A model generated the notes under the pieces. It was not told where the DNA came from and did no database searches. It worked only from the letters and a program-made list of their open reading frames with translations. From positions 160,001 through 224,000 of IMG/VR virus record IMGVR_UViG_3300045988_155520: a stretch of 64,000 bases of DNA, one strand, 5' to 3'. Below are positions 2,984 to 62,172 of the stretch, one piece after another (position 1 is the stretch's first letter; each line of letters begins with the position of its first letter). The position numbers and the translations under genes are program-made. This DNA is from a virus.

Positions 2984-3913
2984 TTAATCTTTGTCTTTTA
3001 AAACATCACAAATTTCTATCAGTTTAGCCAAATCACGGACTATTGTTTCAGAAGAATACTGCATACCCTGTATTTGTTCCTCTAAACGTTTTAAGTTATC
3101 TAATTCTTCAGAATCCTCTGTAACTGATAACAATTTACCAATCTCCGTTAAACTTTCATTCTTAAACTTATCTAACAACTTTTCACGCTTGGTATCAGCA
3201 TTCTTATTACGTATATTAGTTATATCCATAACAAGGCTTCTTTCGTCTTCATTAAGTTTATCTTTAAAAGTATTGTTGAAGTTATTAAACATTTCATCCA
3301 AATCAATCTTATCTGGATTAGTCGCACGATGTTCGTTAATGTAGTTACTAACAGTCATTAAACTATCAGATAATTTATTAATATTGGATAAGTTTTCACG
3401 TTTGGTTAACAAAGTATTACAACTCTCAAAGAAACGTCTTTTTTCATAAGATAATTTATCAGAAGGATATATTTCATTATCTTTCAAAAGTTTCGCTAAT
3501 TTAGCATTTGACTCTTTAATTGTCTTTTTATCCAGTTTACCTTCCGTGAGATTTAATGCCGTTCTTACAAAAGATGTACTGTCTGTAACACCATTATAAC
3601 CACGCAAAGCATTATAAAATTGGAATTGAGAAAGCAGATTCTTATCTTCTTTAATGGTACGCATAACACGTCCAACCAGTTTTCTATCTTTCTTAAATAA
3701 TTCTGGAAGTTCACTTTCAAAAATATGATTTAAAATACCAAAATTATTACCTTTATACTCATTTTCCATTTCCTGCTGTTTCAAAGCTACAGATACAGTA
3801 TCTTCAAATAATTCCACAGCATGATTATAAGTTTCAAAATCCTTTTTATCTAAAGATTCCTTTATAATTTTTATAAAATTATCTACCTTTTTATTGTATT
3901 CTGATTTTTTCAT
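2984..3913 (-). CDS. Hypothetical K/E-rich helical protein (309 aa); possible scaffolding protein
   Basis: ORF track. Charged, heptad-like composition, located directly downstream of the portal gene. The function is inferred only. Confidence 0.6.
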   Translation of the reverse strand: MKKSEYNKKVDNFIKIIKESLDKKDFETYNHAVELFEDTVSVALKQQEMENEYKGNNFGILNHIFESELPELFKKDRKLVGRVMRTIKEDKNLLSQFQFYNALRGYNGVTDSTSFVRTALNLTEGKLDKKTIKESNAKLAKLLKDNEIYPSDKLSYEKRRFFESCNTLLTKRENLSNINKLSDSLMTVSNYINEHRATNPDKIDLDEMFNNFNNTFKDKLNEDERSLVMDITNIRNKNADTKREKLLDKFKNESLTEIGKLLSVTEDSEELDNLKRLEEQIQGMQYSSETIVRDLAKLIEICDVLKDKD

Positions 3914-18007: not shown

Positions 18008-20488
18008 ATGGACGAAATAAGATTAATGTATAGCAAAGAATTGGATGAAGTTGTATTATATATGGAAACATCTATTCTTAATGAAATACCCTCCAAAGAG
18101 TTAACACCAGAACACTTCGTTCTTGCAATGTTAGATACAAAAAACTGTCATGCACACATGATTCTTGAAAGTTATTTAATGAACAACAACATAGTAAGTT
18201 TAAGAGAGTTGTTTGCTAACGCATTAACGGCATGTAATAACGAGATAAGTGGACTAACAAATAATATAATTGAAATTCCTTTCAGTAAAGAAATGAATAA
18301 ATTAATGGAAGATGCTGAGAATGAAAAAGAAATTACGAAAAGTAAAATTTTAGGTACTGAACATTTCCTTTTAGCATTACTAAATCCAGAATTGAATTTA
18401 AATAGCGGAAAAATTCTTAAAAGTGCTGGTATTGATTATAACAATATTTTGAGTAAATGTCAAAGCGAAACAAAAAATAGACATACTAAAAAACCGAAGA
18501 CTAAAAATAATAACATGAATATTCCTTCAAAAAGTGAAATTAATATTAAATCAGTTTCACCAAAAGATAATTTTATAAAGCAATATACTATCAATTTAAA
18601 TCAAATTATAAAAGATGGTAAAGTTGATAAAACAATCGGACGAGAAAAAGAACTTAAAATTATCATGCAGGTACTTTCAAGACGTAGAAAGAATAATGTA
18701 GTACTTGTAGGTAAAGGAGGTGTCGGAAAGACTTCAATTGTTTACGGTCTTGCAAAGTTAATTAACGAACATAAAGTACCAAGTGTATTAGACGGCAAAG
18801 AATTACTTCTACTCAATATTATGAGTATGGTATCGGGAACGAGTTTAAGAGGTATGTTTGAAGAACGAGTTAAAGGACTATTTGACGAATTGGAAAACAA
18901 TGACAAATATATCCTTGTTATTGACGATATGCAGATGGTACTTAAGAATGGTAATAAAGATAGAGATACAGACATTTCTGATAAAATTGGTAAGATTTTG
19001 GAAGACGGTAATGTTAGAGTCATAGGTACATTACCTTTTAAGGAATATCGTAATTGTGTTGAAAATAATACACAACTATCTCGTAAATTACAGAAAATTG
19101 TTATTGAACCAAACAATGCTTCTGAAACAATACAAATTATAAAAGAAAATAAAAAGTTTTACGAGGATTATCATAACACAATTTATAGTGATGAAATAAT
19201 CAAAAAAGCGGTTGAACTTTCTGAAAAGTATATAAACGACAGATGTTTGCCTGATTCTGCAATAGATGTGATTGACCTTGCTGGTGCTGGATTATGTCTA
19301 ACCAAAACGGAACCAGAAATGATTACTTCTACAAGAAGCCGTCTGCATGAGATTGCAAATGAAAAAAAGAAGTACATGAATAATGGTGAATGGGAACTTG
19401 TTGAAGTCTTAAATAAAGAAGAGAAGGCACTTAATCGTAAATTAACTGATTATAAGAGAGAACAAAAGAAAGATAATAAACATATAGTACCTATTACTGA
19501 AAATGATATTGCAAAAGTAATATCAGATATAACTGGAGTACCAGTAACCAAATTGTCAAGTAATGAGAAAACTAAAATCGCTCATATTGATAATATATTA
19601 AAGGAAAGTATTATAGGTCAAGATGAAGCCGTAGAAGCAATCTGTAAGGTTATTAAAAGAAATAAAGTAGGGCTTGGTGATAAAACAAAGACAATGTCAA
19701 ATATTCTTATGATGGGCCCTTCAGGTTGTGGTAAAACGTTGATTGCTAAGAAGTTAGCAGAAGAAATATTCGGTGATGAAAAATCATTAATACGCATTGA
19801 TATGTCTGAATATTCTGAGAAAAATTCAATTTCAAAACTTACAGGTGCATCTCCTGGTTATGTAGGATATGAAAATGGTGGACAATTAACCGAGGCAATT
19901 AAAAATAAGCAACACTGTGTCTTACTTTTAGATGAAATTGAAAAAGCTGACCAAGAAGTTTATAATCTGTTTTTACAATTATTCGATGATGGTAGATTAA
20001 CAGACTCATCTGGGCAACTTGTTAATTTTAAGAACGTTATTGTTTTAATGACATCAAATATCGGTGCTAAGCAAGCATCTGAGTTTGGAAAAAGCATTGG
20101 CTTTTCTACAAATGTTGGTAATAATAAGAAAGCCATCATTGAAAAAGAAATGAAAAGTAAATTTACACCAGAATTTCTTAATAGAATTGACCAAATTGTT
20201 TACTTTAATAGTTTAACAGATGATAACCTCAAAGGTATTACTGAATTAGAAATAAAGAAGTTCTCCAATAGAGTTAAACAAGCTGGTTATAATATAACAT
20301 ATACACCAAAGGTTGTTGATTTCATCTATCAAAAAGCAGTAAAACAGAAAGAGTATGGCGCTCGCCCAATTATTCGATTTGTACAAAACGAACTTGAAGA
20401 TAAGTTGACAGATGTAATCTTACTTGGGGATTATGAAAATGAGCATACATTTAATTTTGATTTCGAAAACGAATTAATCATTTCGTAA
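18008..20488 (+). CDS. ClpA/ClpC-like two-ring AAA+ unfoldase
   Basis: Clp_N repeats (EHFVLAMLD, TEHFLLALLN). D1 has GKGGVGKTS and LVIDDMQ. D2 has GPSGCGKT, LLLDEIEKA and GARPIIR. The KSIGFS loop at 20096..20104 aligns with the ClpA KSIGLI ClpP-docking loop. Confidence 0.85.
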   Translation: MDEIRLMYSKELDEVVLYMETSILNEIPSKELTPEHFVLAMLDTKNCHAHMILESYLMNNNIVSLRELFANALTACNNEISGLTNNIIEIPFSKEMNKLMEDAENEKEITKSKILGTEHFLLALLNPELNLNSGKILKSAGIDYNNILSKCQSETKNRHTKKPKTKNNNMNIPSKSEINIKSVSPKDNFIKQYTINLNQIIKDGKVDKTIGREKELKIIMQVLSRRRKNNVVLVGKGGVGKTSIVYGLAKLINEHKVPSVLDGKELLLLNIMSMVSGTSLRGMFEERVKGLFDELENNDKYILVIDDMQMVLKNGNKDRDTDISDKIGKILEDGNVRVIGTLPFKEYRNCVENNTQLSRKLQKIVIEPNNASETIQIIKENKKFYEDYHNTIYSDEIIKKAVELSEKYINDRCLPDSAIDVIDLAGAGLCLTKTEPEMITSTRSRLHEIANEKKKYMNNGEWELVEVLNKEEKALNRKLTDYKREQKKDNKHIVPITENDIAKVISDITGVPVTKLSSNEKTKIAHIDNILKESIIGQDEAVEAICKVIKRNKVGLGDKTKTMSNILMMGPSGCGKTLIAKKLAEEIFGDEKSLIRIDMSEYSEKNSISKLTGASPGYVGYENGGQLTEAIKNKQHCVLLLDEIEKADQEVYNLFLQLFDDGRLTDSSGQLVNFKNVIVLMTSNIGAKQASEFGKSIGFSTNVGNNKKAIIEKEMKSKFTPEFLNRIDQIVYFNSLTDDNLKGITELEIKKFSNRVKQAGYNITYTPKVVDFIYQKAVKQKEYGARPIIRFVQNELEDKLTDVILLGDYENEHTFNFDFENELIIS

Positions 20489-21799: not shown

Positions 21800-22522
21800 T
21801 TAATAACCAACAATCTTATCACCAACATTCTCTTTCCAACCTGGAATATCAATATTTTTATATGTTTCAACAGCTGCCATTGGAACTTCTATTCTATCAA
21901 TTCTTTCAAAAGTATCCAACTCAAATTCTGGTGGAATCAGACTTTGGAAACGTACAGAACCATTTTTACCGTTGTCAAGTGAATAAAAATTATAACCTAT
22001 TTTTTTTACTGAATGAGGAATTACTATTTTTTCAATATTTGTACGACCAAAAGAATAATTACCTATTTCTAAAACACCTTCAGGTATAGTAATTTCTTTC
22101 AAAGATTTACAGTTATCAAGTAATGAATCTGAAATTGTTTTGATGTTTTTAGGTAGTATAATATTTGTTAGTAGGGTATCAGATGTAAAACATGAAACTC
22201 CAATGTCTTCTATCGTATCAGGTAATATAATTTCTTTAAAACCTGCATAGGAGAACATACCCATATATAATTTTCTTCCATTGAATTTAGAAAAATCTAC
22301 TTGTGTAATCTTCTGATTTTTTTCCACATCTCCCCAATTACCTATGAAGAACCCATCTTTCAATTCACCATTCATGTCTAAAGTATTCCATCCAGGATGT
22401 AAAAATAATAAATTAGGTGATGAAAAATCAATAATATCTAAATTTCCTTTTAAAATAGGTACATCATCACTCCCCTCAACAAACAATCTAATTATATTCT
22501 CAACGACACGGTTATACCTCAC
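21800..22522 (-). CDS. BspA-type leucine-rich-repeat protein, main body (240 aa), out of frame with its own N-terminal exon
   Basis: LRR_5-like repeats (IILPDTIEDIGVSCF, IILPKNIKTISDSLLDNCKSLKEITIPEGVLEIGNYSF). The track start is a GTG inside the G-tract region. Confidence 0.75.
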   Translation of the reverse strand: MRYNRVVENIIRLFVEGSDDVPILKGNLDIIDFSSPNLLFLHPGWNTLDMNGELKDGFFIGNWGDVEKNQKITQVDFSKFNGRKLYMGMFSYAGFKEIILPDTIEDIGVSCFTSDTLLTNIILPKNIKTISDSLLDNCKSLKEITIPEGVLEIGNYSFGRTNIEKIVIPHSVKKIGYNFYSLDNGKNGSVRFQSLIPPEFELDTFERIDRIEVPMAAVETYKNIDIPGWKENVGDKIVGY

Positions 22523-24026: not shown

Positions 24027-25346
24027 ATGGAAACATTTGAAAATATTAGAAAAGAGAGTAGATTATTATTTGAATACGTTAGAGGTAGTCATCTTTATGG
24101 ATTGAATAATGAAGACTCAGATTTAGATACTGGTGGATTGTTTATCTGTAATCCATCAGATTTAACAGGACTTGGACTTAATTATTCTCCACAGGTTGCA
24201 GATAGTAGAAATGACACAACGTGGTATGAATTAGGCAAGTATTTTCAAATGCTTCTTAAATCAAATGCAACTGTGCTTGAAACTCTGTTTATACCAGAGG
24301 ATAAAATGATTTTAAAGCCATCCCCTGTTCTTGATGAGTTATTTGCAAATAAAGATAAATTCATTACCAAGCAGTGTTTTAAACCTTTCGTTGCTTATTC
24401 TTTAGAACAAATTAGAAAAGCACGTGGACTTAATAAGAAGATTGTTAATCCAGTTACCAAGCGTTTAAAGCCAATGGATTTCTGTTATACATTCAAAGAC
24501 CAAGGTAGTACTAAAATGGAATATTGGCTGGAATATAGAGGTATGAAACAGGAATATTGTGGTCTTGTTAAAATACCTAATATGGAGGGTATCTATGGCG
24601 TTTATTACGACTGGGGACAACACTTTCAAAGGGAAGGAGTTGAAGACAAAAATTTCGAGGGTTGTTATATACGTCTATTTAACACAAAAGATATTATTAC
24701 ACGTTTAAAGGAAGCACAAGCTAATAATAATCAAGCAGGTATAGAAATAGAAACCCGTCTTCTTAAACGCTCTTATATGCAAAATATGGCTCAGTTTATC
24801 ATGAACTATACCAATATTGACGATTGGGATGATTTCCTGTGGTGGTTTCGTGTAAATCAAACACCTAAAGGATATAAAGGCATTGTGCGAGAAAATTCAA
24901 ATGAAATGGTCCTATCACCAGTAGCTAAGGGAGAGAAACCAATATGCTACATGTCTTTCAATTCTAACGGATATTCAGCTCATTGTGCAGACTATAAACA
25001 TTATAAAGATTGGGAAGAAAAGCGTAACGAGAAGAGATATCAATCCAATCTTACAAAGAACTATGATTCTAAAAATATGATGCATAGTTTCCGTTTAATT
25101 CAAATGGGTCTTGAAATTGCAAGTGGAGAAGGGGTAAATCTTGACAGAAATAAGATTGGAGATAGAGATTTGCTTATGAATATTAGAAATCATAAATATG
25201 AGTATGATGAACTTATGGATATGATTGATAAAAAGAAAGCAGAAATGGACAAAGCAATGAAAAATTCTACTCTTCCAGAAACTATAGATGTACAAATGGT
25301 CGAAGATATTCTGCAAAATATCAGAAAGAAACAAATGATTGTATAG
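24027..25346 (+). CDS. Pol-beta-type nucleotidyltransferase of the RlaP-like (PF10127-like) kind
   Basis: The N-terminal LFEYVRGSHLYGLNNEDSDLDTGGLF matches the GSxxYG...DSDxD signature as I recall it. Confidence 0.55.
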   Translation: METFENIRKESRLLFEYVRGSHLYGLNNEDSDLDTGGLFICNPSDLTGLGLNYSPQVADSRNDTTWYELGKYFQMLLKSNATVLETLFIPEDKMILKPSPVLDELFANKDKFITKQCFKPFVAYSLEQIRKARGLNKKIVNPVTKRLKPMDFCYTFKDQGSTKMEYWLEYRGMKQEYCGLVKIPNMEGIYGVYYDWGQHFQREGVEDKNFEGCYIRLFNTKDIITRLKEAQANNNQAGIEIETRLLKRSYMQNMAQFIMNYTNIDDWDDFLWWFRVNQTPKGYKGIVRENSNEMVLSPVAKGEKPICYMSFNSNGYSAHCADYKHYKDWEEKRNEKRYQSNLTKNYDSKNMMHSFRLIQMGLEIASGEGVNLDRNKIGDRDLLMNIRNHKYEYDELMDMIDKKKAEMDKAMKNSTLPETIDVQMVEDILQNIRKKQMIV

Positions 25347-32381: not shown

Positions 32382-33616
32382 ATGGAAACAATAGCTGAAT
32401 TATTAATAAAAATATCAACCATAAAAAATGAATTAAAAGAAACCATTAATTGTTTGGGTGGATTTGCTGATAATGATTTTACAAAATATAAGGAATATTT
32501 AATTAAATTTTATATTGAGGGAGGAGGGGCTAATGGAAATTATATTGAAAAGTTAGAAATACCATCTTATGTAACTAATATTAGTAATTATAGGTTTAAG
32601 TTGTCAAAATTTAAAGAAGTGGTAGTACCCAGTAGTGTTCAAGTTATTAATGATGGGGCGTTTTGTTATAACTCAAATCTTAAAAAAGTTACATTGAATG
32701 AAGGTGTTATGAGTATTGGGAGTGAGGTATTTAGTCAATGTACGAATTTGGAGGAAATTAATCTCCCTGATAGTTTAAGTTATATGAACAATAAATGTTT
32801 TGATAATTGTCAAAAATTGAAATCAATAACTTTACCAAGTAATTTACAAGGTCTTGGACAGAGTTGCTTTAATCAATGTAAATCATTAACAGAGGTTACT
32901 TTTCCTAAGAAAATTAAAAATACAGGAAGTTACAGTTTTGGATGGTGTAGTGGATTAACTACAGTAACAATTCCAAAAACAGTAGGAAGTATTAGTAATA
33001 GTACATTTACAAACTGCACATCTCTAAAAAAAGTTATATTTGTTGAGGGGGAAAAAGAACAAAATCCATTCTTTCCACCATTTATGATGCGAGGTGGAAT
33101 AATTGAAGATAGCGCTTTTGAAAATTGTAAATCGTTAACTGAAATTACAATACCTGATGATTTTGAGAACTTGAGTAGAAGAGTTTTTTATAATGCAGTA
33201 ATTTAACAGGTGTGACACTTTCAAATAAAGTGATAAATATTGGTGATGAGGCATTTGGGAATTGTTTAAAACTAACGGAAGTAACGATTCCTGATAGTGT
33301 AAAATATATTGGTAAATTTTGTTTTTTTGGTTGCACTTCATTAACGGCACTTACAATACCGAGTGGTGTAATCGAAATAAATACAAGGATGTTTGGAAAC
33401 TGCACATCGTTAACAACACTTAATTTGTCTAAAAATATTAAGTCTATACATGATGGTATATTCTTTGGTTGTACACAGCCAATAAGAATTAATTATAATG
33501 GTACACGTAACGAATGGATAAGTATAAAAAGAGAAGAAACAGATATACCAAGTGGTAGTAAATTAGTATGTACTGATGGTGAATATACGCTTGACAGAAC
33601 ATTAACACCGTCATAA
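32382..33616 (+). pseudogene. BspA-type LRR protein split by a 1-nt frame offset near 33194..33203 (track ORFs 32382..33206 and 33212..33616)
   Basis: The repeat register continues across the break: ...RRVFYN / CSNLTGVTLSNKVINIGDEAFGNC in the -1 frame. Confidence 0.65.
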
Positions 33617-34016: not shown

Positions 34017-34727
34017 ATGAAAAACGTTAAATTATTTACAACAAAACAACTAAGAAGTGATTATGAAGACTCAAGTAACTACACAGAACCATACGTAAGT
34101 CTGGAAGAAGAGGGTAATGAAGTAAAATATAATAATATATCAATTATTAGAATTACAGTAAAAGATGGAGGAAATGCTACATTACAAGGAGGTATTACTC
34201 TTAAACCTGGAGAACATGTTATAAATATGAAACAGAATTATTCGTTACCACTTGGAATTACTAATGGAAAGGAGTACATTGAAGAAGTAGATTTATTTGA
34301 TTATAATGAGACATCTGTAGGACGTTCACTTTTTGAAGGTTTTACTAACTTAAGAAAAGTTTACCTATCTAATAAAATAACTGCTATAGAAGATTGGGCT
34401 TTCAACCGTTGTACTAACTTGGAAGAAGTTATAAATACTGAAAATATTTCCAGCATAGGACTTAACAGCTTCTCTGATTGTAGTAGTTTAGAAAAAATCA
34501 CATTCTCAGATAAAATTAACACTATTTCTCCTTATTCTTTTAAGAATAGTACCAGTTTAAAAAATATAATATTCAATTCGGATACTCCAAAAGATACATT
34601 TCTAAATATATTACAACAAATACCTACTATTCAAAGTATCTATGTTCCACAAGATGCGGTACGAACATATAAGACAGCTTCTGGATGGTCAAGTTATACT
34701 TCTATGATTAAACCAATAGAGCAATAG
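34017..34727 (+). CDS. BspA-type LRR protein (236 aa), intact
   Basis: Repeats such as FEGFTNLRKVYLSNKITAIEDWAFNRCTNLEEV. Confidence 0.75.
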   Translation: MKNVKLFTTKQLRSDYEDSSNYTEPYVSLEEEGNEVKYNNISIIRITVKDGGNATLQGGITLKPGEHVINMKQNYSLPLGITNGKEYIEEVDLFDYNETSVGRSLFEGFTNLRKVYLSNKITAIEDWAFNRCTNLEEVINTENISSIGLNSFSDCSSLEKITFSDKINTISPYSFKNSTSLKNIIFNSDTPKDTFLNILQQIPTIQSIYVPQDAVRTYKTASGWSSYTSMIKPIEQ

Positions 34728-36806: not shown

Positions 36807-37586
36807 CTATTCTTCTTTATTCATATCACAATACTCGTCATAAGTAAACAAACTTAAATCATCCATTAATATACAAGCTGTAAAACAATCTATACAAGCA
36901 AAATCTTTATACATAACTGGAACTTCACCGACATTCGTGTGACCGAAGATTTGCATCTTGCAATCCCCAATTCTCTTGTCATCATAGAACTCTCTTAAGT
37001 CACACCATAAACAAGAACCAGTTTTATCATATCCACCACGCATTTCACCAATCTGACCAAGCAATCTTACAAATTTATCTCTTTTGTTTGCCTTATCAGA
37101 TACCTTGGTAGTGAATAAAACATCCCATTCGTCTTTGTCATACTTATTCTTAAGTTCTTTATACCAAGAATGACTAATTCCAGCATGAGAGAAGTACACA
37201 ATTTCTCCACCAATTTCTTCTCTACAAGCAAAACGCATATCAAGAGGTTTCATTACATCATTGAAAATTCCTTTAATTGTATTTTCAAATTTATCACTGT
37301 AACGTGTACTTACTGCAATATCATAAAAATAATCACTAATATAATGAAAATCATGATTACCTACAAGGAATCTATATAGATTAGGACTTAAATTCTTTGT
37401 AACGGTATCATATAAATCTAAGAAGTTTTTAATAGCATCCGTTTCAGTTATTCCCTCAGATGGATAAGGGTCAAAATAATCACCAATAAAGATAATTCTC
37501 TCTACATCCAACTTTCCATCAATCACATCTTGTATCGGCTTCTTCCAAAAATCCCGACCGTGTATATCTCCAATTAATAAAATCAT
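36807..37586 (-). CDS. Ser/Thr-phosphatase-like / ApaH-like metallophosphoesterase
   Basis: Motifs LLIGDIHGR, FIGDYFD, VGNHD, FSHAG and IFGHT. Confidence 0.75.
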   Translation of the reverse strand: MILLIGDIHGRDFWKKPIQDVIDGKLDVERIIFIGDYFDPYPSEGITETDAIKNFLDLYDTVTKNLSPNLYRFLVGNHDFHYISDYFYDIAVSTRYSDKFENTIKGIFNDVMKPLDMRFACREEIGGEIVYFSHAGISHSWYKELKNKYDKDEWDVLFTTKVSDKANKRDKFVRLLGQIGEMRGGYDKTGSCLWCDLREFYDDKRIGDCKMQIFGHTNVGEVPVMYKDFACIDCFTACILMDDLSLFTYDEYCDMNKEE

Positions 37587-38557: not shown

Positions 38558-39352
38558 ATGAACGTACAAAGTTATAATAATAATTTTAATCTTTCAGAAT
38601 TTACAAGTTTCTCTCATGATTCTAAGATTGTGGAATTATGTAATGAATTATATGAAGAGGCAAAAAAGAATGTATATAAATGTAGTGAACATCTATCAGT
38701 AACATCGGTAAATAAATATACACCTATTGTAGATATTGAAATTTGTAATAGTTTATCAATGAGTATATCTATTTCACCAGATAACAATGTTAATATACCA
38801 TATTATATATTTAGTGATATGTTTCAGATGGTTAGTGATACTAACCAGTTCAATAATCTTACTATAGTTTTATATCTTACTAATTTTGAGAAAGAAAATT
38901 TTATAGAGTGTGCTGGACAAAGTATAGACCAAATTCTAAGAATTTATAATACAATCAATAAGAAAATAGATTATGATAAGTGGAATGATATAACTTCCAT
39001 TGATTCAACGAAAGAAAATATAACATATCTTTCAAGACAAATACTTAGCTTTTTGGAAGAAAATGCACGTATCGTTTATTGTATTAATAATCGTCCTGAA
39101 ACTTTAAACTCACAAGAACTGGACAAGATAAAAGAATATATAGATTTATTTAAGTGTTGGTTGTATACAATAGATGTCACGAAAAAAGATGATAAAGAAT
39201 TTGAAAAGTTATTTACTGAAACATTTTTTTCCTCTTATAATAGTAAACTCTCTGATTTTAATAACTTAAGAAATACTTTAATATTTGCATTATTCGAAAG
39301 TTTAAAACTTTACTCTATACTTCTAAAATATTTTAACAATGGAACAATATAA
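38558..39352 (+). CDS. Hypothetical protein (264 aa), paralog B
   Basis: ORF track. Overlaps the methyltransferase gene by 14 nt. Confidence 0.7.
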   Translation: MNVQSYNNNFNLSEFTSFSHDSKIVELCNELYEEAKKNVYKCSEHLSVTSVNKYTPIVDIEICNSLSMSISISPDNNVNIPYYIFSDMFQMVSDTNQFNNLTIVLYLTNFEKENFIECAGQSIDQILRIYNTINKKIDYDKWNDITSIDSTKENITYLSRQILSFLEENARIVYCINNRPETLNSQELDKIKEYIDLFKCWLYTIDVTKKDDKEFEKLFTETFFSSYNSKLSDFNNLRNTLIFALFESLKLYSILLKYFNNGTI

Positions 39353-40595
39353 GAGAACATATAATACAGAATGGGACTTTAACAATGTCAACACAAAAGA
39401 ATACACTCATTGCTATCACAAATATCCAGCAATGATGATTCCACAGGTGGCAAGAAAACTTATTGAAGAATATAGACCAGATGGTCAAATTAAAACCATT
39501 CTTGACCCATATATGGGAAGTGGTACAACTCTCGTAGAATCACTTCTTGCTAACATTAATGCTATCGGTACAGATATTAATCCGCTTGCAAGATTTATTA
39601 GTGAAATTAAGACAACCACATACGATATTAATGCGATTATTAACGATTATAAATTAATAGATAAAGAAATATTATCTTACGATATTAATAAAGCTGTAAA
39701 ACAAGATTATTCTCGTTTGATAAACTATCTGTACTGGTATAAAGAAGATGTCTTATTAAAACTTTCATACATAGAACAAACTATAAAAGTATGTGCATCA
39801 AGACCTAAATTCTTTTTGCTAATTTTAGCCGAACTTGTCAGAGAAGTATCTTACACAAGAAAAAGTGAATTTAAACGTTATAAAATGACTGATAAACAAA
39901 TCGCTAATTTTAATCCAGATGTGTTTGGTTTATTCTATAAAATAGTCGCACGGAATATTAAGGGGCTGAAAGAATTTAATGGAAAAATCTCACATGATAG
40001 ATGTATGAGTTCTGCACAGATATGTAACTTCAATAGTGTATACGAAATACCAAATGATATTATAGAAGATGAAACTATTGATATGGTTGTAACTTCACCG
40101 CCTTATGGGGATAGTAAAACAACTGTAGCTTATGGACAATTTTCAAGTTGGGCAAACCAATGGTTTAATTTCAATGACACAAAAAATATTGATAGACTAT
40201 TGATGGGAGGGGTAAAACAAACGGAAGAAACATTTACCACAACATCAATTAGAGAAGAATTAGACCAAATAAAAAATATAGACTATAATAGATATAAAGA
40301 TGTAATAGCATTCCTTAATGACTATAGTAACTCTATTAGAAATGTTGCAAAGAAAGTTAGAACAAAAGGAAAAATATGTTATGTGGTTGGATGTAGAACC
40401 GTGAAAGGTATACAGATTCCTCTTGACTATTTTACAGCCGAGATGTTTGAACAGAATAATTGCAAACATATAGAAACTATAGTTAGGAATATTCCAAGTA
40501 AAAGAATGCCATCTAAAAATAGTCCAACAAATAAAGTCGGAGAAACAGTAACAACAATGAATCACGAATATATCGTGATAATGGAAAAGATGTAA
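39339..40595 (+). CDS. DNA amino-methyltransferase (N6-A or N4-C); motif I precedes motif IV
   Basis: HKYPAMMIPQ, DPYMGSGTT (aa 56-64) and VTSPPYGDS (aa 251-259), with about 190 aa between motifs I and IV. Confidence 0.78.
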   Translation: MEQYKRTYNTEWDFNNVNTKEYTHCYHKYPAMMIPQVARKLIEEYRPDGQIKTILDPYMGSGTTLVESLLANINAIGTDINPLARFISEIKTTTYDINAIINDYKLIDKEILSYDINKAVKQDYSRLINYLYWYKEDVLLKLSYIEQTIKVCASRPKFFLLILAELVREVSYTRKSEFKRYKMTDKQIANFNPDVFGLFYKIVARNIKGLKEFNGKISHDRCMSSAQICNFNSVYEIPNDIIEDETIDMVVTSPPYGDSKTTVAYGQFSSWANQWFNFNDTKNIDRLLMGGVKQTEETFTTTSIREELDQIKNIDYNRYKDVIAFLNDYSNSIRNVAKKVRTKGKICYVVGCRTVKGIQIPLDYFTAEMFEQNNCKHIETIVRNIPSKRMPSKNSPTNKVGETVTTMNHEYIVIMEKM

Positions 40596-40675
40596 AACAA
40601 ATTGTTCAAAATAAATAATATGTTCAATAATAATGAACAAGTTAAAAATGTTGAACACAAATAAATTATAAAATA

Positions 40676-41374
40676 ATGAATAAAGAAATAAAAAACATAG
40701 ATGGTATACTTTATCAAGTAATAGACACTAAACTCTATTATAAAGGGACTTTATATATAATAAATCAATCAATAGATAAATTACCTGATAATTTAGTTGT
40801 AGATGGAGACCTTATTATTCATAATTGTTGTTTTTTAAAAAGAATACCTCATAAATTGAATGTTAATGGCTCATTGTATATCAATGAATGTAATATAAAA
40901 TCATTACCATGTAGTCTGAAAGTGAAAAATAATATAACACTTATCGGCTGTAGACAATTTACAACACTACCAAATAATTTAAATATTAATGGTCATCTTA
41001 CAATTGTAAATTCACCGATATTATCAATACCAGATAATATACATGTAGGACAGTCAATCACATTACGTTCAACCTCTATACAAAAACTCCCAAACAACTT
41101 AACAGTTAAAAGAGAACTTACTCTTAGTCATTGTTATGATTTAACTGTTTTACCAGAAAATTTAAAAGTAGAATATAATCTTATTCTGGATAGTTGCATT
41201 AACTTGAATACAATTTCAAAAAATACAATAGTCGGAAGTTATATGACTTTGAAAGATTGTTTTAAACTTACAGAACTACCAGAAGATTTAAAAGTAGGAA
41301 ATTTTATATTCTTAAAAACCTCATACTTAAATAATATACCAAATCACTTAAAAGAAAAGGTGATGGTTTCATAA
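40676..41374 (+). CDS. LPxNL(T/I)V-type leucine-rich-repeat protein (232 aa), paralog 1
   Basis: Repeats of about 22-23 aa such as LPNNLNINGHLTIVNSPILSIPDNIHVGQSITL. Confidence 0.72.
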   Translation: MNKEIKNIDGILYQVIDTKLYYKGTLYIINQSIDKLPDNLVVDGDLIIHNCCFLKRIPHKLNVNGSLYINECNIKSLPCSLKVKNNITLIGCRQFTTLPNNLNINGHLTIVNSPILSIPDNIHVGQSITLRSTSIQKLPNNLTVKRELTLSHCYDLTVLPENLKVEYNLILDSCINLNTISKNTIVGSYMTLKDCFKLTELPEDLKVGNFIFLKTSYLNNIPNHLKEKVMVS

Positions 41375-41392
41375 ATTAAATGTTACGACAGA

Positions 41393-43456
41393 ATGAAACA
41401 AGAAAATAAAATATATAAAGAAATAGACGGTGTTAAATATGAAGTAAGAGATAATAAATACTTTTACGATGGTGACTTGAATATAGATAAAACAAATAAT
41501 GGTTATCTACCAGATAATTTAACTATATCAGGACATTTATATGCAGATAATTATGACAAAAATTTAGAACTCCCTAAAAACTTGACAGTTGGAGAAGATT
41601 TAAACTTGTATAATACACCAATAAAAACTTTACCGTCAGGTTTAATTGTAGGTGGAGATTTAGATGCAGACAATTGTACAATGCTGAAAGTTATACCTGA
41701 TTCATTAATTGTTGGAGGTAATTTAACTCTAAGCAATTGTACCAATCTCGTAGAACTATTAATTACTAAAGTTGGGGGGATATTAGATGTTGAAAACACA
41801 AAAATTAAAAAACTGCCAGATAATCTTATCGTTGGAGATTCCCTTTGGCTTGGATATACAAATATAACCGCATTACCAAATAAAATAACAGTAGGACGCT
41901 CCATTGATTTAAACGAAACCCCAATTGAATATATACCAAATGATATCGTTATTGGAGAAAATCTTATATTAAACAAATGTAAAAATATTTACACATTACC
42001 TGATAATATTACAATAGGTAATGACCTGTTTATTGAACGTTCAAATATTAAGACCTTACCACAAAATTTAACGGTGATAGGTGATTTGTTCTTATACTAT
42101 TACCAGAATATAAAAACTTTACCAGATAATATAATCGTACACGGAAATGTTTTTGCGGATGATTCAAGTATTAATAATACCTATGTTAATAAAATTATAC
42201 CCGAGAATGTAATCCATAAATTAAATGATTTACATAATATGGTGATTATATGGGAAAGAAATAATATAACATATATAAAAATAGGAAAACTCTTTACTGT
42301 AATTGATTCAAAATACCAAAACGTTTATCATGCACACGTACTCGGTGATGATACAAAACTATATATCTTAACTGACGGAGAAAATCATTGGGCATACGGA
42401 AAAACTAAAGAAGAAGCATGGATAAAACTTATGTACTCTATCAAAAGAGACCATATCATATACTATCATGATATGAGAATGAACACCAAAATTACAATAG
42501 AAGATGCTTCAAGTATGTTTAAAATAATAACAAATATATTTCATCAAGATATGAATAAAATTGATAACCCATTTAGATTTATACAACAAAAATATATTAC
42601 ATTAAATGATTTATATACACTGCTGAAACTACAATTCGGAAATGATGTGGTGGATAAATATATTAATGCCATAAATTCAACAGAACAATGCGATTGTACA
42701 GCGAAATATAACGATAATATTAAAACACTAACTGCATTTAAACCAATCATCATTACTCTTAATGGTGTGGGATTCTATAAAAAATTAAATCAAAAAATAC
42801 AAAAGCCATTCGATTCTAAGTTTAATAAACTTATGAATGAAACGCTTATATATCTTCTCGAAAATCTACCATATACAAAAGTTGGATATACATGGAGATA
42901 TGAAATGAATATCATTATTAATATTCCAACATATTTTAATACAAATGCACTGTGGAAAAGAGATGTATCAAAAATACAAAGTATTGTAGCATCAATGGCA
43001 AGCACATTCTTTACAAGAGAATATCATGAACTTTTCCAAACAGAAAATAATACAATACTCTTTGAATTTGATTGCCAAACATGGAATACACCAACAGTAG
43101 AAGATGCATATAATTGGTTAGTGTATAGACAAGAAGAATGTATTGATAATAGCATAAAACGTTTCGCAAGATTCTTCTTAACAATTGGAGAAATGAAAGG
43201 GAAGACATCAGAAGAACTTATCAAATATCTCATAGAACATTATAATACAAATTGGAATCATGAGAAAGCAGATAATAAGTTCGGAAGAATATTCATAAAA
43301 GAAAAAGTGATTCAATTCGATATAGATGAAAAAACAAATGAACAAAAAGTATATGGAAAAGAAGAATGGGAAAGATTATCAGTATTCTTCTTCACATTAA
43401 AAGATGAGAAAATAAAAGAGATTATTATCAACGAAATGAATAAAACAGATGAATAA
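41393..43456 (+). CDS. LPxNL-repeat protein fused to a shared middle module and a C-terminal Thg1/TLP-like domain (687 aa), paralog 2
   Basis: Repeats at aa 38-250. Middle module IWERNNITYIKIG...LTDGENHWAYG. The C-terminal PIIITLNGVGFYKK..KPFDSKFNKLMNET..GYTWRYEMNIII..SKIQSIVASMAS..FDCQTWN..NWLVYRQEECIDNSI follows the Thg1-like family pattern. Confidence 0.7.
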   Translation: MKQENKIYKEIDGVKYEVRDNKYFYDGDLNIDKTNNGYLPDNLTISGHLYADNYDKNLELPKNLTVGEDLNLYNTPIKTLPSGLIVGGDLDADNCTMLKVIPDSLIVGGNLTLSNCTNLVELLITKVGGILDVENTKIKKLPDNLIVGDSLWLGYTNITALPNKITVGRSIDLNETPIEYIPNDIVIGENLILNKCKNIYTLPDNITIGNDLFIERSNIKTLPQNLTVIGDLFLYYYQNIKTLPDNIIVHGNVFADDSSINNTYVNKIIPENVIHKLNDLHNMVIIWERNNITYIKIGKLFTVIDSKYQNVYHAHVLGDDTKLYILTDGENHWAYGKTKEEAWIKLMYSIKRDHIIYYHDMRMNTKITIEDASSMFKIITNIFHQDMNKIDNPFRFIQQKYITLNDLYTLLKLQFGNDVVDKYINAINSTEQCDCTAKYNDNIKTLTAFKPIIITLNGVGFYKKLNQKIQKPFDSKFNKLMNETLIYLLENLPYTKVGYTWRYEMNIIINIPTYFNTNALWKRDVSKIQSIVASMASTFFTREYHELFQTENNTILFEFDCQTWNTPTVEDAYNWLVYRQEECIDNSIKRFARFFLTIGEMKGKTSEELIKYLIEHYNTNWNHEKADNKFGRIFIKEKVIQFDIDEKTNEQKVYGKEEWERLSVFFFTLKDEKIKEIIINEMNKTDE

Positions 43457-44648
43457 TGTAATAAAACAATTTGTTAAAGAAACTGGTTACAATTTAGAAA
43501 TAAGGAATGGAAAACCATATTATATTGGCGATTTGGATTTACGTGATATCACTATCTCATCTATTCCAAATGACCTAACTGTAGATGGAAATTTATTTCT
43601 AAAAGGCGATAACGCTAAATTGATGCCAGATAATTTAACAGTATTAGATAAATTATCAATATGGTGTGCTAATATTAAATCCTTACCTAATAATCTGATA
43701 GTAAGATATGGATTAGATTTTATAGACTCCACAATAGAAAATATCCCTAACAATACTGTTATTGGAGGATGGCTTAATTTAAGTGGTACAGCAATTACAG
43801 AGTTACCTGATAACCTAACCATTGGAGGAACTCTTTACCTACTTAATAGTAAAATCACTTCATTACCAAATAACTTAACTGTAGGAGGCGGAATTGATTT
43901 ATCTAATAGTTCAATTAAAACGATACCTCAAAACTTAACAGTACATACTTTTTTAGATTTAGGTGATACAAATATCACATCACTTCCAGATAATTTAACT
44001 GTAGGAGGTTATCTTGATTTGGAATATTCAAATATTATTAAAATTCCTAATAATTTAACTGTATATGGCTATCTTTGTTTGGAAGGCACAAAAATTGAAG
44101 AAGTACCAAATGATTCATTAATATATGGCTGTATATACTATAATGATAATCGTATGGTTCACCCATCACTCCCTTTAGAGGATTATGACAAACGTCAAAA
44201 ATTCCGAAATGAACCTATCTTCTGGGAATCTAATGGGGTGAGGTATATTAAAGTGGATGATATTCTTAGTATCATTGATTCTCAACATGGCAATGTTTAT
44301 CGCACTCATCAGGTCGGTTATGATAAAGAATTATATATTGTTACCGATGGAGAAAATAATTGGGCACATGGTGAAACCCTTAAAGAAGCAAAACTTGACC
44401 TAATTTATAAAATTTCAGACAGAGATACATCCGCTTACAAAAACATGTCACTTGATGATGTCTTGACGTTTGAAGAAGCTATTATAGCATATCGTACCAT
44501 TACTGGTGCATGTTCAGCTGGTACAAGAGATTTTATAGAACACCGACTACCAGAACCACGCAAGAAAACATATACAATAGGAGAAATTATTGAATTGACC
44601 GATAATGAATATGGTAGTGATAAATTTAAAGAGTTTTTTGGAAAATGA
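43449..44648 (+). CDS. LPxNL-repeat protein with the shared middle module (399 aa), paralog 3
   Basis: Repeats, then FWESNGVRYIKVD...VTDGENNWAHG. 8-nt overlap with the upstream gene. Confidence 0.72.
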   Translation: MNNVIKQFVKETGYNLEIRNGKPYYIGDLDLRDITISSIPNDLTVDGNLFLKGDNAKLMPDNLTVLDKLSIWCANIKSLPNNLIVRYGLDFIDSTIENIPNNTVIGGWLNLSGTAITELPDNLTIGGTLYLLNSKITSLPNNLTVGGGIDLSNSSIKTIPQNLTVHTFLDLGDTNITSLPDNLTVGGYLDLEYSNIIKIPNNLTVYGYLCLEGTKIEEVPNDSLIYGCIYYNDNRMVHPSLPLEDYDKRQKFRNEPIFWESNGVRYIKVDDILSIIDSQHGNVYRTHQVGYDKELYIVTDGENNWAHGETLKEAKLDLIYKISDRDTSAYKNMSLDDVLTFEEAIIAYRTITGACSAGTRDFIEHRLPEPRKKTYTIGEIIELTDNEYGSDKFKEFFGK

Positions 44649-44672
44649 TTATTAACAAGTTATTTAAAATAG

Positions 44673-44966
44673 ATGAAGAAAAATTTAAAATTAGAAAACT
44701 TACTTAGAGAATTTTTAAATATTATGGTAAAACGATATACTTGGCTTACTATAAAATTTGAATATAACGAAAATAAACAACAATATCTTGTATCATATTC
44801 ACCTAAAGATAGAATACAAAGTGATAATGAATTTATGACAGATAGTATGATGTTGGAAGATATGTTTAATGATTTTTTTGGAGAATATGCACCACTGTTC
44901 TGTGATGAAGAAGAATATTTCAAACTATCTCCTAATGCAGAAGTAATAAAATATGAAAGCAAATAG
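44673..44966 (+). CDS. Hypothetical protein (97 aa)
   Basis: ORF track. Preferred over the antisense low-complexity ORF 44660..45016. Confidence 0.55.
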   Translation: MKKNLKLENLLREFLNIMVKRYTWLTIKFEYNENKQQYLVSYSPKDRIQSDNEFMTDSMMLEDMFNDFFGEYAPLFCDEEEYFKLSPNAEVIKYESK

Positions 44967-45010
44967 ATAAATAATAAAACTATAAAGTAATTTATATAGT
45001 ATACGAATAT

Positions 45011-45039
45011 AAGCATTGCGAAAATTAATCGTAGTGCTT
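45011..45039 (+). terminator. Rho-independent terminator ending the rightward arm
   Basis: AAGCATTGCG-N9-CGTAGTGCTT (with G-U pairs), followed by ATTTTAGTTTT. Confidence 0.6.
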
Positions 45040-45426
45040 ATTTTAGTTTTAATAAATCTATAGTAAAAAAAAAATGAAATATTAATATAGATACATAAAA
45101 AATGATGACCCTTCTGGAAAATATAAGAAAAAATTTTTTGGAAAATTTTTTTTGAAAGGGTATGGGTAAGAAAAAAGGCCCCATCATGGAAAACGGTGAA
45201 TTTTTTTGGAAAATTTTGGACGGAGAACCGTGGGCGTTCTCAAACACCCCCTTTTATGGCGGTGGGTAGGTGGGTTAAATAGGTGTCCCCCCCATAGGGT
45301 CTACCAATACTATATATTCAGTGAACAAATTAAAATTAAAGCATATTCTTTTTAATTCTAACCGCTTAATAAAATAAAATGATATAAGTTATCATATAAA
45401 TTATTTAAAGTCCTTACAGACGAAAT

Positions 45427-51788: not shown

Positions 51789-52502
51789 TTAAGAATATAA
51801 TTTTTCTACAAATTCTATTACGTTTTTATAGAAGTTATAATATTTCTCACCACGTAATTTTGCAAAATCTAAAATTTCGTCCTTTGTTCCGTTGATAAAG
51901 AGCGTGGACCATTGATTATTAGAACGTGTATAAACAAAAGTGTGACCACCTTCCCAATTTTCATGACCTACATAGTAGTCAGCAGGTGACATTATTTTTG
52001 CATCACTAATAAAGCGTACAAAATCGTATATATAAGCGTCACCACAAACAATTGCATTATCTCTCACCAAGCAAGTACCTATTAAATTTGCATTGTCACA
52101 AACTTGTGCATTATCTAATAGAAGGGAATTACCATACACTTGTGCGTTATCCTTAACAATAGAACAACCTTCCATACGTGCGTTATTAAACACACGTGCG
52201 TTATCTTTAACTTTAGAATGTCCTCTTACTTGTGCATTACCAAATACCACTGCATTGCCACAAACTTGTGCAAAGCCGTCTATTATACCATTACCAAATA
52301 CCTTTGCATTGTCGTAAACTTTTCCGTCCAAGAATATCCAACAATTGCCTTCTTGTGAAAGATTATCTTCTTTCTCAATAAAACCACCTATACTACCCTT
52401 CTTGACATTTCCAAAGTCTTTAAGAGCCTCAACTCGATAAAGTTTGTGTCCGTCAAATGTATAACTTAAATCTTTTCTGATTTTATATTTCTTTGTTTCC
52501 AT
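51789..52502 (-). CDS. Left-handed-beta-helix-like repeat protein (237 aa), paralog of 61385..62119
   Basis: Hexapeptide-like repeats VFGNAQVRGHSKVKDNARVFNNARMEG... Confidence 0.7.
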   Translation of the reverse strand: METKKYKIRKDLSYTFDGHKLYRVEALKDFGNVKKGSIGGFIEKEDNLSQEGNCWIFLDGKVYDNAKVFGNGIIDGFAQVCGNAVVFGNAQVRGHSKVKDNARVFNNARMEGCSIVKDNAQVYGNSLLLDNAQVCDNANLIGTCLVRDNAIVCGDAYIYDFVRFISDAKIMSPADYYVGHENWEGGHTFVYTRSNNQWSTLFINGTKDEILDFAKLRGEKYYNFYKNVIEFVEKLYS

Positions 52503-61384: not shown

Positions 61385-62119
61385 TTAACAACCTTTACAA
61401 CTTTCAATGTCGTTGTATGTTTCCTCTACATACTTAACAATTCGTTCATAGTTACGACCGCTTAACTCACTATCTTCATAAGCCTTCTTTATTAGTTCCT
61501 CGCTTGTTCCATAGAAACAACCTACTTTCCACATATTATTAGGACGTGTGTACGTGAAATAACGTCCGCTACTCCATATGTTCTTTCCAACATAATAATC
61601 AGACATTTCCTTAATTTCAACATTACCACATATCACTGCTTTACCTTTGACAGAAGTTTTAATAACTGAATTACCAAAAACAAGTACATTATCGGTAATT
61701 AAAGCATGACTATAAATCATGGCATTCTCATAAACTTGTGCATAATCATGAAGACTTGCATTTTCAAATATTTGGGCATTATCTGATAAAATAACATTAT
61801 CAAAAATCTTTGCATTGCCAAATACTTTTACATTGTCATAAACGGTCACATCATCAAAGATTTTTGCATTGTCATATATTTGTGCATAACCTGTAACAGT
61901 AGCGTTTCCACAAACACGTGCGTCACCATATACCATTGCCTCATGATAAATCCAACAATTACCTTTTTGAGAAAGGTTTTCCTCCTTCTCAACCCAACCG
62001 CCTAAGTCACCCTTATGAAGATTTCTAAAATCTCGTAATAGTTCAATACGATAGAGTTTGTGACCATTATATGACATTGTAAGGTCTTCTCTCAACTTAA
62101 ACTTCTTTTCTGTTTTCAT
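61385..62119 (-). CDS. Left-handed-beta-helix-like repeat protein (244 aa from ATG 62119; track ORF extends to 62167), paralog of 51789..52502
   Basis: MKTEKKFKLREDLTMSYNGHKLYRIELL versus METKKYKIRKDLSYTFDGHKLYRVEAL. ATG 62119 has the conserved GAATTATG context. Confidence 0.7.
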   Translation of the reverse strand: MKTEKKFKLREDLTMSYNGHKLYRIELLRDFRNLHKGDLGGWVEKEENLSQKGNCWIYHEAMVYGDARVCGNATVTGYAQIYDNAKIFDDVTVYDNVKVFGNAKIFDNVILSDNAQIFENASLHDYAQVYENAMIYSHALITDNVLVFGNSVIKTSVKGKAVICGNVEIKEMSDYYVGKNIWSSGRYFTYTRPNNMWKVGCFYGTSEELIKKAYEDSELSGRNYERIVKYVEETYNDIESCKGC

Positions 62120-62164
62120 AATTCTATTTGTTTTAATTGTTTGTTTACTATTGAAATACGATTG

Positions 62165-62172
62165 CAAAATTA
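62165..62172 (-). promoter_or_regulatory. -7 box
   Basis: Sense TAATTTTG, about 46 nt upstream of ATG 62119. Confidence 0.5.

Follow-up and report, generated by a model that had tools for sequence, protein, structure and literature searches.

All members of the Thg1/Thg1-like protein (TLP) family characterised in the literature searched are active 3'-5' polymerases. The canonical enzymes are obligate tetramers (dimers of dimers) with inter-subunit active sites (PMC6471195, PMC4820378). In BtTLP, D30 and D75 coordinate two Mg2+ ions and the D75A mutation dramatically decreases activity, E76 supplies a third carboxylate without metal binding, and the incoming GTP is held by its triphosphate through R28 and R131; in ScThg1, the activation step depends on K44, S75 and N161 and the transfer step on R27, K96 and R133 (PMC3701042). 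In the MaTLP–tRNA structure, recognition of the 5'-terminal base and of C72 falls to R136 and binding of the 5' α-phosphate to N137, while R19, R83, K86 and R114 bind the triphosphate of GDPNP and R215 of the β-hairpin binds the tRNA elbow (PMC4820378). Here we describe a phage gene, the open reading frame (ORF) at 41393..43456 (+) of a 64,000-nucleotide stretch of viral DNA (IMG/VR record IMGVR_UViG_3300045988_155520, positions 160,001 to 224,000; hereafter the window), whose 687-aa product ends in a Thg1-like domain, Thg1*, that lacks both metal-binding aspartates and is joined to leucine-rich repeats (LRRs). We consider it fairly probable that Thg1* is a non-catalytic binding module, a pseudoenzyme, on an LRR-bearing part that tethers it to a protein target within a modular phage accessory protein.

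Thg1 occurs sporadically in large-genome phages, where it has been assigned to tRNA 5'-end repair (PMC7824862). Viral homologues include the TLPs of Lak megaphages, Yersinia phage fHe-Yen9-04, Bacillus phage G and the giant virus Klosneuvirus, those of Lak phages being the closest phage relatives of Thg1* at ~32% identity. The catalytic motifs of the Lak-C1 TLP are intact (LDG...QSDEIS...FDCK...RQNDCERNS), unlike those of Thg1*, and the nearest representative TLPs are mostly ~220–300 aa long, near the size of the Thg1* domain alone. The words inactive, pseudo, fusion, phage and virus are all absent from a 2019 review of the family (PMC6471195). In the literature searched, no paper combined Thg1 with the term pseudoenzyme and neither an inactive Thg1 homologue nor an LRR–Thg1 fusion was described, in line with a first-pass annotation of this DNA, made from the letters alone, which knew of no such fusion.

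A Thg1 fold with a replaced catalytic centre

Thg1* occupies residues 444–687 (42722..43453). Pfam Thg1 (PF04446) matches residues 443–567 (E 2e-16; 60.6 bits against a gathering score of 29.2), PHROG 4717 'tRNA-His guanylyltransferase' matches residues 441–649 (E 7e-29), and phmmer against the PDB recovered BtTLP (4kgk, E 3e-14) and human Thg1 (E 1.4e-4). A hidden Markov model (HMM) built from 148 canonical TLPs detected the ORF at 1e-57 as its sole match in a six-frame scan of the window, which contains no second TLP. The full-length AlphaFold2 model has a mean predicted local distance difference test score (pLDDT) of 82.6, with values mostly of 75–94 across the Thg1-like domain, and Foldseek matches it to BtTLP (4kgm, TM 0.83, E 5e-12), MaTLP (5axk, TM 0.83) and human Thg1 (7cv1, TM 0.79). 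Palm and fingers are present in the model, as is the C-terminal β-hairpin (E632-661) that binds the tRNA elbow in canonical enzymes. The C-terminus of the ORF is a genuine member of the Thg1/TLP superfamily by homology and fold. With BtTLP (4KGK/4KGM) and MaTLP (5AXK-5AXN) it shares the fold (TM 0.80–0.83), sequence similarity (E 3e-14 for BtTLP) and the order of the motifs. Family motifs that the first-pass annotation had quoted block by block were all found in the 687-aa translation, and the Thg1 fold it proposed was recovered by profile and structure searches alike. Its layout of an LRR scaffold plus Thg1-like domain also stands, except that the domain does not end near residue 670 but reaches ~685, including the β-hairpin and a terminal helix, and that a 160-residue mid module between the two parts had been overlooked.

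At the N-terminal edge of the domain, residues 427–443 (42671..42721) form a flexible linker, predicted to be disordered (pLDDT <50), that replaces most of the N-terminal Thg1/TLP helix; alignment to the Lak TLPs leaves a gap at this helix, and column 442, which is R/K in the family, is Asn here.

Active-site residues were mapped with a phmmer alignment and two MAFFT alignments, one built on the 148 closest representative clusters of an exhaustive HMMER search (set 1) and the other on 85 canonical TLPs (set 2); all three agreed. The first metal-binding Asp (BtTLP D30; hTHG1 D29; MaTLP D21), present in 146/146 sequences of set 1 and 85/85 of set 2, is N457 (codon AAT, 42761-42763). The second (BtTLP D75; hTHG1 D76; MaTLP D69), equally fixed (147/147 and 85/85), is Y503 (codon TAT, 42899-42901). 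Catalytic Asp is thus present in all 148 nearest representative clusters, and the claim of the first-pass annotation that both metal aspartates are replaced is upheld. A shift of the carboxylates by a few residues, which would have overturned that claim, was not seen: the 5 residues on either side of 457 include no acidic one, and in the model 457 closes β-1 and 502–503 sit at the hairpin turn, matching the canonical enzymes.

Substitutions extend well around these two positions. T455-L456-N457 (42755..42763) stands in place of the canonical R-x-D, with T455 at the GTP-binding Arg (BtTLP R28, ScThg1 R27, MaTLP R19; R in 91 and M in 39 of the 148 family sequences, R in 85/85 of set 2). In W501-R502-Y503-E504 (42893..42904), which replaces Q-S-D-E, W501 takes the position of the canonical Gln (142/148) and R502 that of the activation Ser (ScThg1 S75; 147/147); the Glu alone is retained, E504 being equivalent to BtTLP E76 (147/147). 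D524 (42962..42964) lies at the position of ScThg1 R93 and MaTLP R83 (R/K in 110/148), and Q562 (43076..43078) at that of BtTLP R131, ScThg1 R133 and MaTLP R114 (R/K in 148/148 of set 1, R in 85/85 of set 2). The canonical D-x-x-R is represented by E582-C-I-D585 (43136..43147), with E582 for the Asp (147/148) and D585 for the Arg equivalent to MaTLP R136 (R/K in 144/148); the next residue, N586, is retained. At the equivalent of MaTLP R215, for which the family has Arg in 110 sequences, K656 is found, and the corresponding residue is Ile in 4/13 members of the clade described below.

The framework around these positions is otherwise conserved: G458, F461, K471, P472, D474, Y499, E504, K527, S530, F559-D560, R579, N586-S587 and G631 are kept. 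Among 23 columns in which at least 85% of the 148 canonical TLPs carry one residue, 17 are kept, 2 are changed conservatively and 4 are lost; the lost columns, D457N, Q501W, S502R and D503Y, are exactly the metal and activation positions. Within the activation set K471 and N586 persist and the Ser is lost, and within the triphosphate set K527 persists and the Arg residues are lost. The residue sets of an active 3'-5' nucleotidyltransferase are therefore incomplete at each of the metal, activation, GTP-triphosphate and tRNA-contact sites. The loss at the catalytic centre is broader than the two metal aspartates. With the BtTLP D75A phenotype and five further altered substrate- or NTP-contact positions at hand, the description of the domain as catalytically dead in the first-pass annotation, taken as loss of canonical two-metal 3'-5' addition, becomes a strong inference. 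Its description as a tRNA-5'-end-binding domain is weakened by the same comparison: R136 has become D585, R19 and R114 have become T455 and Q562, R83 has become D524, and R215 is replaced by Lys or Ile. With an isoelectric point (pI) of 6.1 against a canonical median of 8.0, the domain is also mildly acidic. Since contact Arg residues are lost or charge-reversed in a mildly acidic domain, the canonical tRNA-binding mode is eroded rather than preserved. Compared with BtTLP and MaTLP, Thg1* thus differs in both metal Asp, the activation Ser, the GTP-binding Arg and the 5'-end-reading Arg, in a degenerate N-terminal helix, and in being appended to a 426-residue LRR-mid module or to its 65-residue remnant.

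The same substitutions define a clade. An exhaustive search returned 2,423 TLP relatives (representative clusters), of which 2 scored below 1e-30, the next relatives showing 32–36% identity. Those 2 alone belong to the clade, within which six fused (P0001-P0006) and ten short (P0120-P0129) clusters were then collected. The clade alignment, containing 13 fused and short members, is invariant (13/13) at N457, W501, R502, Y503, E504, Q562 and E582. Position 585 is D in 11 and N in 2 members, and position 524 is D in 12 and N in 1. All 8 loci examined have an intact reading frame with WRYE and N457. Nei–Gojobori estimates of the ratio of nonsynonymous to synonymous substitution (dN/dS) were 0.20–0.28 for the Thg1-like domain, at a synonymous divergence (dS) of 0.16–0.37, compared with 0.32–0.46 for the LRR, 0.40–0.44 for the neighbouring 399-aa gene and 0.5–0.95 for the helical linker region, making Thg1* the most constrained part of the locus. 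Such values indicate that this is not a decaying gene; since the substitutions are fixed throughout the clade and the domain is the most constrained part, it appears to be kept for a non-canonical role. Catalytic residues lost under purifying selection are what operationally defines a pseudoenzyme, and Thg1* combines the two; the loss of activity itself we infer. Signature motifs of the clade were absent from 185,579 GTDB genomes, and IMG/VR yielded only 2 partial loci.

Effector-type LRRs, a mid module and variation among sister genomes

Upstream of Thg1*, the protein consists of an N-terminal cap, an LRR solenoid and a mid module. The solenoid spans residues 39–265 (41507..42187; pLDDT 90–97) and consists of 11 repeats of 20–21 aa (residues 39–262) with the pattern LPxNLxVxGxLxLxxxxIxx. 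Residues 69–230 match the solved Vibrio protein FlrP (8z5u; phmmer E 1e-16), described as a β-solenoid LRR (bioRxiv 10.64898/2025.12.04.692373); Foldseek also recovered 8z5u (E 4e-5), and weaker resemblance extends to YopM/SspH/IpaH by Foldseek and to XopL/SlrP by NCBIfam profiles. Tandem repeats, a regular β pattern and the high pLDDT identify the region as a bacterial LRR solenoid of the IpaH/YopM/FlrP type. The 11 repeats and the FlrP match in the same ORF bear out the fusion to an LRR scaffold reported by the first-pass annotation.

Bacterial effectors of this type (IpaH/SspH/SlrP, YopM, XopL, FlrP) share with the present protein the 20–21-residue LPxxLxVxGxLxL repeats and the β-solenoid, and NEL ligases share the arrangement of an LRR N-terminal to a variable C-terminal 'effector' domain. 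They differ in that the protein described here is phage-encoded, has neither NEL domain nor secretion signal, and carries a mid module and a palm domain predicted to be dead. No NEL E3-ligase domain (PF14496) was found in ORF 41393..43456. Related proteins combine LRRs of this type with many other C-terminal domains, among them NEL, PcfJ-like, DnaJ, cytidylyltransferase and MutS_I.

The mid module, residues 266–426 (42188..42670), is divided into an α/β part (~271–351) and a small helical part (~363–426). Modelled separately it reached a pLDDT of 84.3 and a pTM of 0.79; it had no match in Pfam, PHROG, NCBIfam or PADLOC, and the best Foldseek match in the PDB had an E value of 0.45. It may represent a new fold or domain. 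The module also occurs at residues ~235–399 of the product of the next gene (43449-44648) and is common to a paralogous LRR family of this phage lineage. That gene, a 399-aa LRR-mid paralogue (43449..44648, +), overlaps the Thg1* stop with its start by 8 nt, and its entire product aligns to residues 13–424 of the fusion (34% identity, E 2e-66). The fusion is therefore a complete LRR-mid paralogue to which a Thg1-like domain has been joined.

Four metagenomic contigs, the longest of 313,350 bp, encode a protein identical to that of ORF 41393..43456 (P0001). Across the clade the protein occurs in forms of 259–333, 519, 572, 687, 707, 743 and 748 aa, and sister genomes carry the same Thg1-like domain without the LRR, which argues that the LRR is not integral to domain function. 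The transition between forms was resolved by comparison with L001, a 313,193-bp contig in which the order is methyltransferase, 327-aa Thg1*, 399-aa LRR-mid gene and 97-aa ORF. By blastn the window contains an extra 1.8 kb with breakpoints at 40680 and 42478. DNA alignment shows that the leader in L001 is that of the 232-aa LRR gene of the window, and that the L001 ATG is Met363 of the fusion, whose codon (42479..42481) marks the right edge of the indel and the start codon of the 327-aa short form. Short forms keep the last ~65 residues of the mid module, for which reason the fused form is probably ancestral and the short forms are probably derivatives of the 1.8-kb deletion. A recoded stop or split gene behind the short forms was considered and rejected: in L001 the methyltransferase stop is followed by a 61-nt leader and the ATG, with no upstream LRR-coding sequence. 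Also dismissed was a second Thg1* copy on a 304,095-bp contig (P0407, 261 aa; P0415, 740 aa), P0407 being an unrelated upstream ORF without a Thg1 domain. The 90%-identity cluster of the 748-aa fusion P0005 lists 261-aa members, apparently a clustering artefact.

Divergence along the locus is uneven. When the window is compared with L001, identity is 99% for the 399-aa gene (dS 0.008) and 34% for the helical subdomain, with a dS of 0.16 for the Thg1* domain; the Thg1* gene is a mosaic and a local divergence hotspot. The helical subdomain and linker (42479-42721) show ~33% identity between the window and L001, L004 and L006, these three being ~65% identical to one another, and their pairwise dN/dS of 0.5–0.95 indicates either relaxed or diversifying selection. 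The 399-aa gene follows Thg1* with the 8-nt overlap in the window and in L001, L004, L006, L009 and L011/L013, and is disrupted in L008 and L012.

Genomic setting

The source of the window is an uncultured phage of ~300 kb with T4-like head genes and without a close cultured relative; genome context was read from this 64-kb window of a ~313-kb genome. The window is AT-rich (GC 26–37%), and the standard code reads long ORFs across its whole length. T4-like head genes encode an S77 prohead protease, a portal protein and TerL, and the window further contains genes for thymidylate synthase, a helicase, a Lon-like ATP-dependent protease (826 aa, 18008-20488, +; PHROG 4871, E 3.5e-197) and an RlaP RNA-repair nucleotidyltransferase. 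Because TerL is only 24–27% identical to the proteins of cultured phages, there is no close reference genome, and megablast of 40600-44700 against 50,697 phage records gave no match.

The immediate neighbours of Thg1* are a DNA methyltransferase gene and genes for LRR proteins. The N6/N4 DNA methyltransferase (39339-40595, +) lies directly upstream and is followed by a 232-aa LRR-only gene (40676..41374, +) of the same repeat type, which has weak XopL/SlrP LRR matches and falls within the 1.8-kb segment missing from short-form genomes. Downstream of the 399-aa gene, a conserved 97-aa ORF (44673..44966, +) without a family match closes the block and occupies the same place in L001, L004, L006 and L011. 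A terminator-like hairpin with a 13-bp stem and T-rich tail follows at 45009..45041 (+); it is a consensus match only, with 3 such hairpins found against 2.0 expected, and a promoter scan likewise gave 71 sites against 69.6 expected. PADLOC returned no match. The methyltransferase is present in the window, L001 and L004 and absent from L006, L009 and L011, and over the whole stretch from ~37.7 to 42.5 kb, genomes that are otherwise alike differ in structure. IS605-type OrfB/TnpB (Cas12f-like) genes in related loci (L001 997-2043 and 8631-9980; L011 3722-5362; L012 5681-6943) are absent at the corresponding window sites (~36811-36832 and ~45037-45105), an insertion polymorphism flanking the Thg1* block.

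An RlaP-family Pol-beta nucleotidyltransferase of 439 aa is encoded at 24027-25346 (+) (PF10127, E 6e-19; PHROG 388), ~17 kb from Thg1* and upstream of the + strand block that holds it. In jumbo phages the RlaP family is usually found together with RNA ligases; none was identified among the window ORFs scanned. Scans found neither tRNA genes nor Rfam RNAs in the window or in five related loci, and the linkage to RNA ligase, kinase-phosphatase and tRNA genes that marks phage tRNA/RNA-repair cassettes was not seen next to Thg1* within the window.

Other genes of the window include further repeat proteins. It holds six LRR genes of two kinds, among them three genes for BspA-type LRR_5 proteins at 21800-22522 (-), 32382-33206 (+) and 34017-34727 (+), with E values down to 1.5e-49. 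YdcK β-solenoid/hexapeptide repeats (PF18836) occur in the ORFs at 51789-52502 (-) and 61385-62167 (-) (E 1.9e-8 and 3.9e-10), and a gene resembling these is present in L011/L013. Beside the portal gene, a 309-aa ORF (2984-3913, -) has a sub-threshold Swt1-like HEPN match (PF18731, E 3e-4; 21.4 bits against a cut-off of 27.5) and could encode an RNase-like domain.

Candidate functions of the Thg1-like domain

The pseudoenzyme reading that we favour runs as follows. Thg1* descends from a Thg1-like 3'-5' RNA polymerase, having kept the fold and most core residues and lost the two-metal centre, the activation Ser, the triphosphate Arg residues (at T455, Q562 and D524) and the 5'-end-reading Arg. 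Because the residues for metal binding, activation, triphosphate holding and 5'-end reading are gone, canonical nucleotide addition would be impossible. The pocket, remodelled to present W, R, Y, Q, E and D, would then recognise a ligand without polymerising, and the fixation of this pocket suggests that the ligand is a specific one. LRRs of the bacterial-effector type are protein-recognition scaffolds, so the N-terminal module plausibly tethers the domain to a protein; this tethering by the LRR and mid part would act in cis in the fused form and, in phages with the short form, may act in trans through the overlapping downstream LRR-mid gene.

A parallel is offered by inactive GGDEF domains, which bind nucleotides instead of making c-di-GMP. 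As in these degenerate receptors, a palm fold without catalytic carboxylates would have been kept as a binding or regulatory module. The likeness is an analogy and not a matter of membership, since GGDEF receptors form another family and Thg1* contains neither an I-site nor any other known receptor motif. PMC11974786, citing Anantharaman et al. 2010, places the Thg1 palm among the relatives of GGDEF, Cas10 and mCpol.

Several observations weigh against this assignment or narrow it. Asn can still ligate Mg2+, and with E504, D474, K471, K527 and N586 retained, some phosphate or nucleotide binding or a one-metal reaction would be compatible with the residues that remain. A new catalytic site would account for the invariant W-R-Y-E cluster no less well than a binding site does. 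A pI of 6.1 falls at the 17th percentile of canonical TLPs, a value still compatible with RNA binding. AAT and TAT encode N457 and Y503 in every locus, and synonymous sites provide no evidence specific to both positions. Tethering in trans is suggested only by gene overlap and synteny.

Alternatively, W501, R502, Y503, E504, Q562, E582 and D585 could form the site of a neofunctionalised enzyme that catalyses another reaction, for example nucleotidyl or phosphoryl transfer with one metal or none, hydrolysis at the cap or triphosphate of an RNA 5' end, or a covalent mechanism involving Tyr503. Substitutions that are invariant rather than drifting (13/13 at 457, 501–504, 562 and 582), the retained phosphate contacts K471, K527 and N586 together with the third carboxylate E504, and the strength of constraint on the domain within the locus would all be expected of such an enzyme. 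A binding pocket predicts this invariance equally, however; three or four triphosphate-binding Arg residues are lost, which speaks against NTP-dependent chemistry, and the Thg1/TLP literature searched holds no precedent, so that we regard a new catalytic activity as unlikely. A remnant fused by chance and devoid of function, or an alignment artefact with shifted carboxylates, would be the opposite extreme. A single nucleotide change separates either codon, AAT or TAT, from GAT for Asp, and the N-terminal parts of the protein are highly variable, as might be expected of a remnant. Yet the ORF is intact in all variants with a dN/dS of 0.20–0.28, the phmmer and both MAFFT alignments agree, and both the absence of nearby acidic residues around 457 and the modelled positions of 457 and 502–503 stand against a shift. 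This explanation is largely refuted and we find it scarcely credible.

Two further proposals keep Thg1* closer to tRNA. As the first-pass annotation suggested, a dead domain might serve as a tRNA decoy or sponge. It would bind acceptor ends, either shielding them from a tRNA-targeting host defence or sequestering damaged tRNAs, and the LRR would recruit the host nuclease. Descent from enzymes of tRNA 5'-end repair, which are known from jumbo phages (PMC7824862), the structurally present elbow-binding β-hairpin of the model, the retention of N586, K527 and K471 and the RlaP gene in the same window are in keeping with this idea. It is countered at the binding surface itself, where Asp replaces the 5'-end-reading Arg (D585) and the R83 equivalent (D524), Lys or Ile replaces R215, the N-terminal helix is degenerate and the domain is mildly acidic; nor do the genomes help, given the lack of tRNA genes and Rfam RNAs in the window and five related loci and the position of RlaP ~17 kb away, upstream of the + strand block. 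We hold a tRNA decoy to be decidedly improbable. Obligate tetramers with inter-subunit active sites also invite a poison or regulatory subunit, a dead paralogue that co-assembles with an active host or phage TLP and inhibits or redirects it, and core structural residues are retained. The N-terminal helix of the intertwined dimer interface, though, is shortened and predicted to be disordered, an identity of 32–36% to the nearest canonical TLPs makes specific co-assembly uncertain, and the window contains no canonical TLP to be poisoned; this role seems to us highly unlikely.

Within the favoured pseudoenzyme reading, a more specific proposal is that Thg1* is the first natural Thg1/TLP pseudoenzyme to act as a metal-free trap, converted by the phage from a tRNA-repair palm domain. 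The trapped ligand could be the 5' end of an RNA, a fragment of tRNA or a signalling nucleotide of immunity, and exchangeable LRR targeting modules would deploy the trap, in cis or in trans, as an adaptor for counter-defence. Divergence and indels are concentrated at this locus, as expected of a gene in an arms race; we nevertheless offer this version as a doubtful one. More generally, the gene region diverges and rearranges faster than its flanks, which suggests host-interaction or counter-defence functions, and the protein fits a wider pattern in ~300-kb phages in which effector-type LRR modules are shuffled onto diverse C-terminal domains.

One public source annotates the 687-aa protein as 'tRNA(His) 5'-end guanylyltransferase', a label that is probably wrong as to function. 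A 'Thg1' annotation in a phage does not equate to tRNA-repair capacity unless the catalytic residues are checked. The clade shows that the Thg1 fold can be reused beyond reverse polymerisation, and its naturally occurring substitutions offer a way to dissect the contribution of each residue of the active site.

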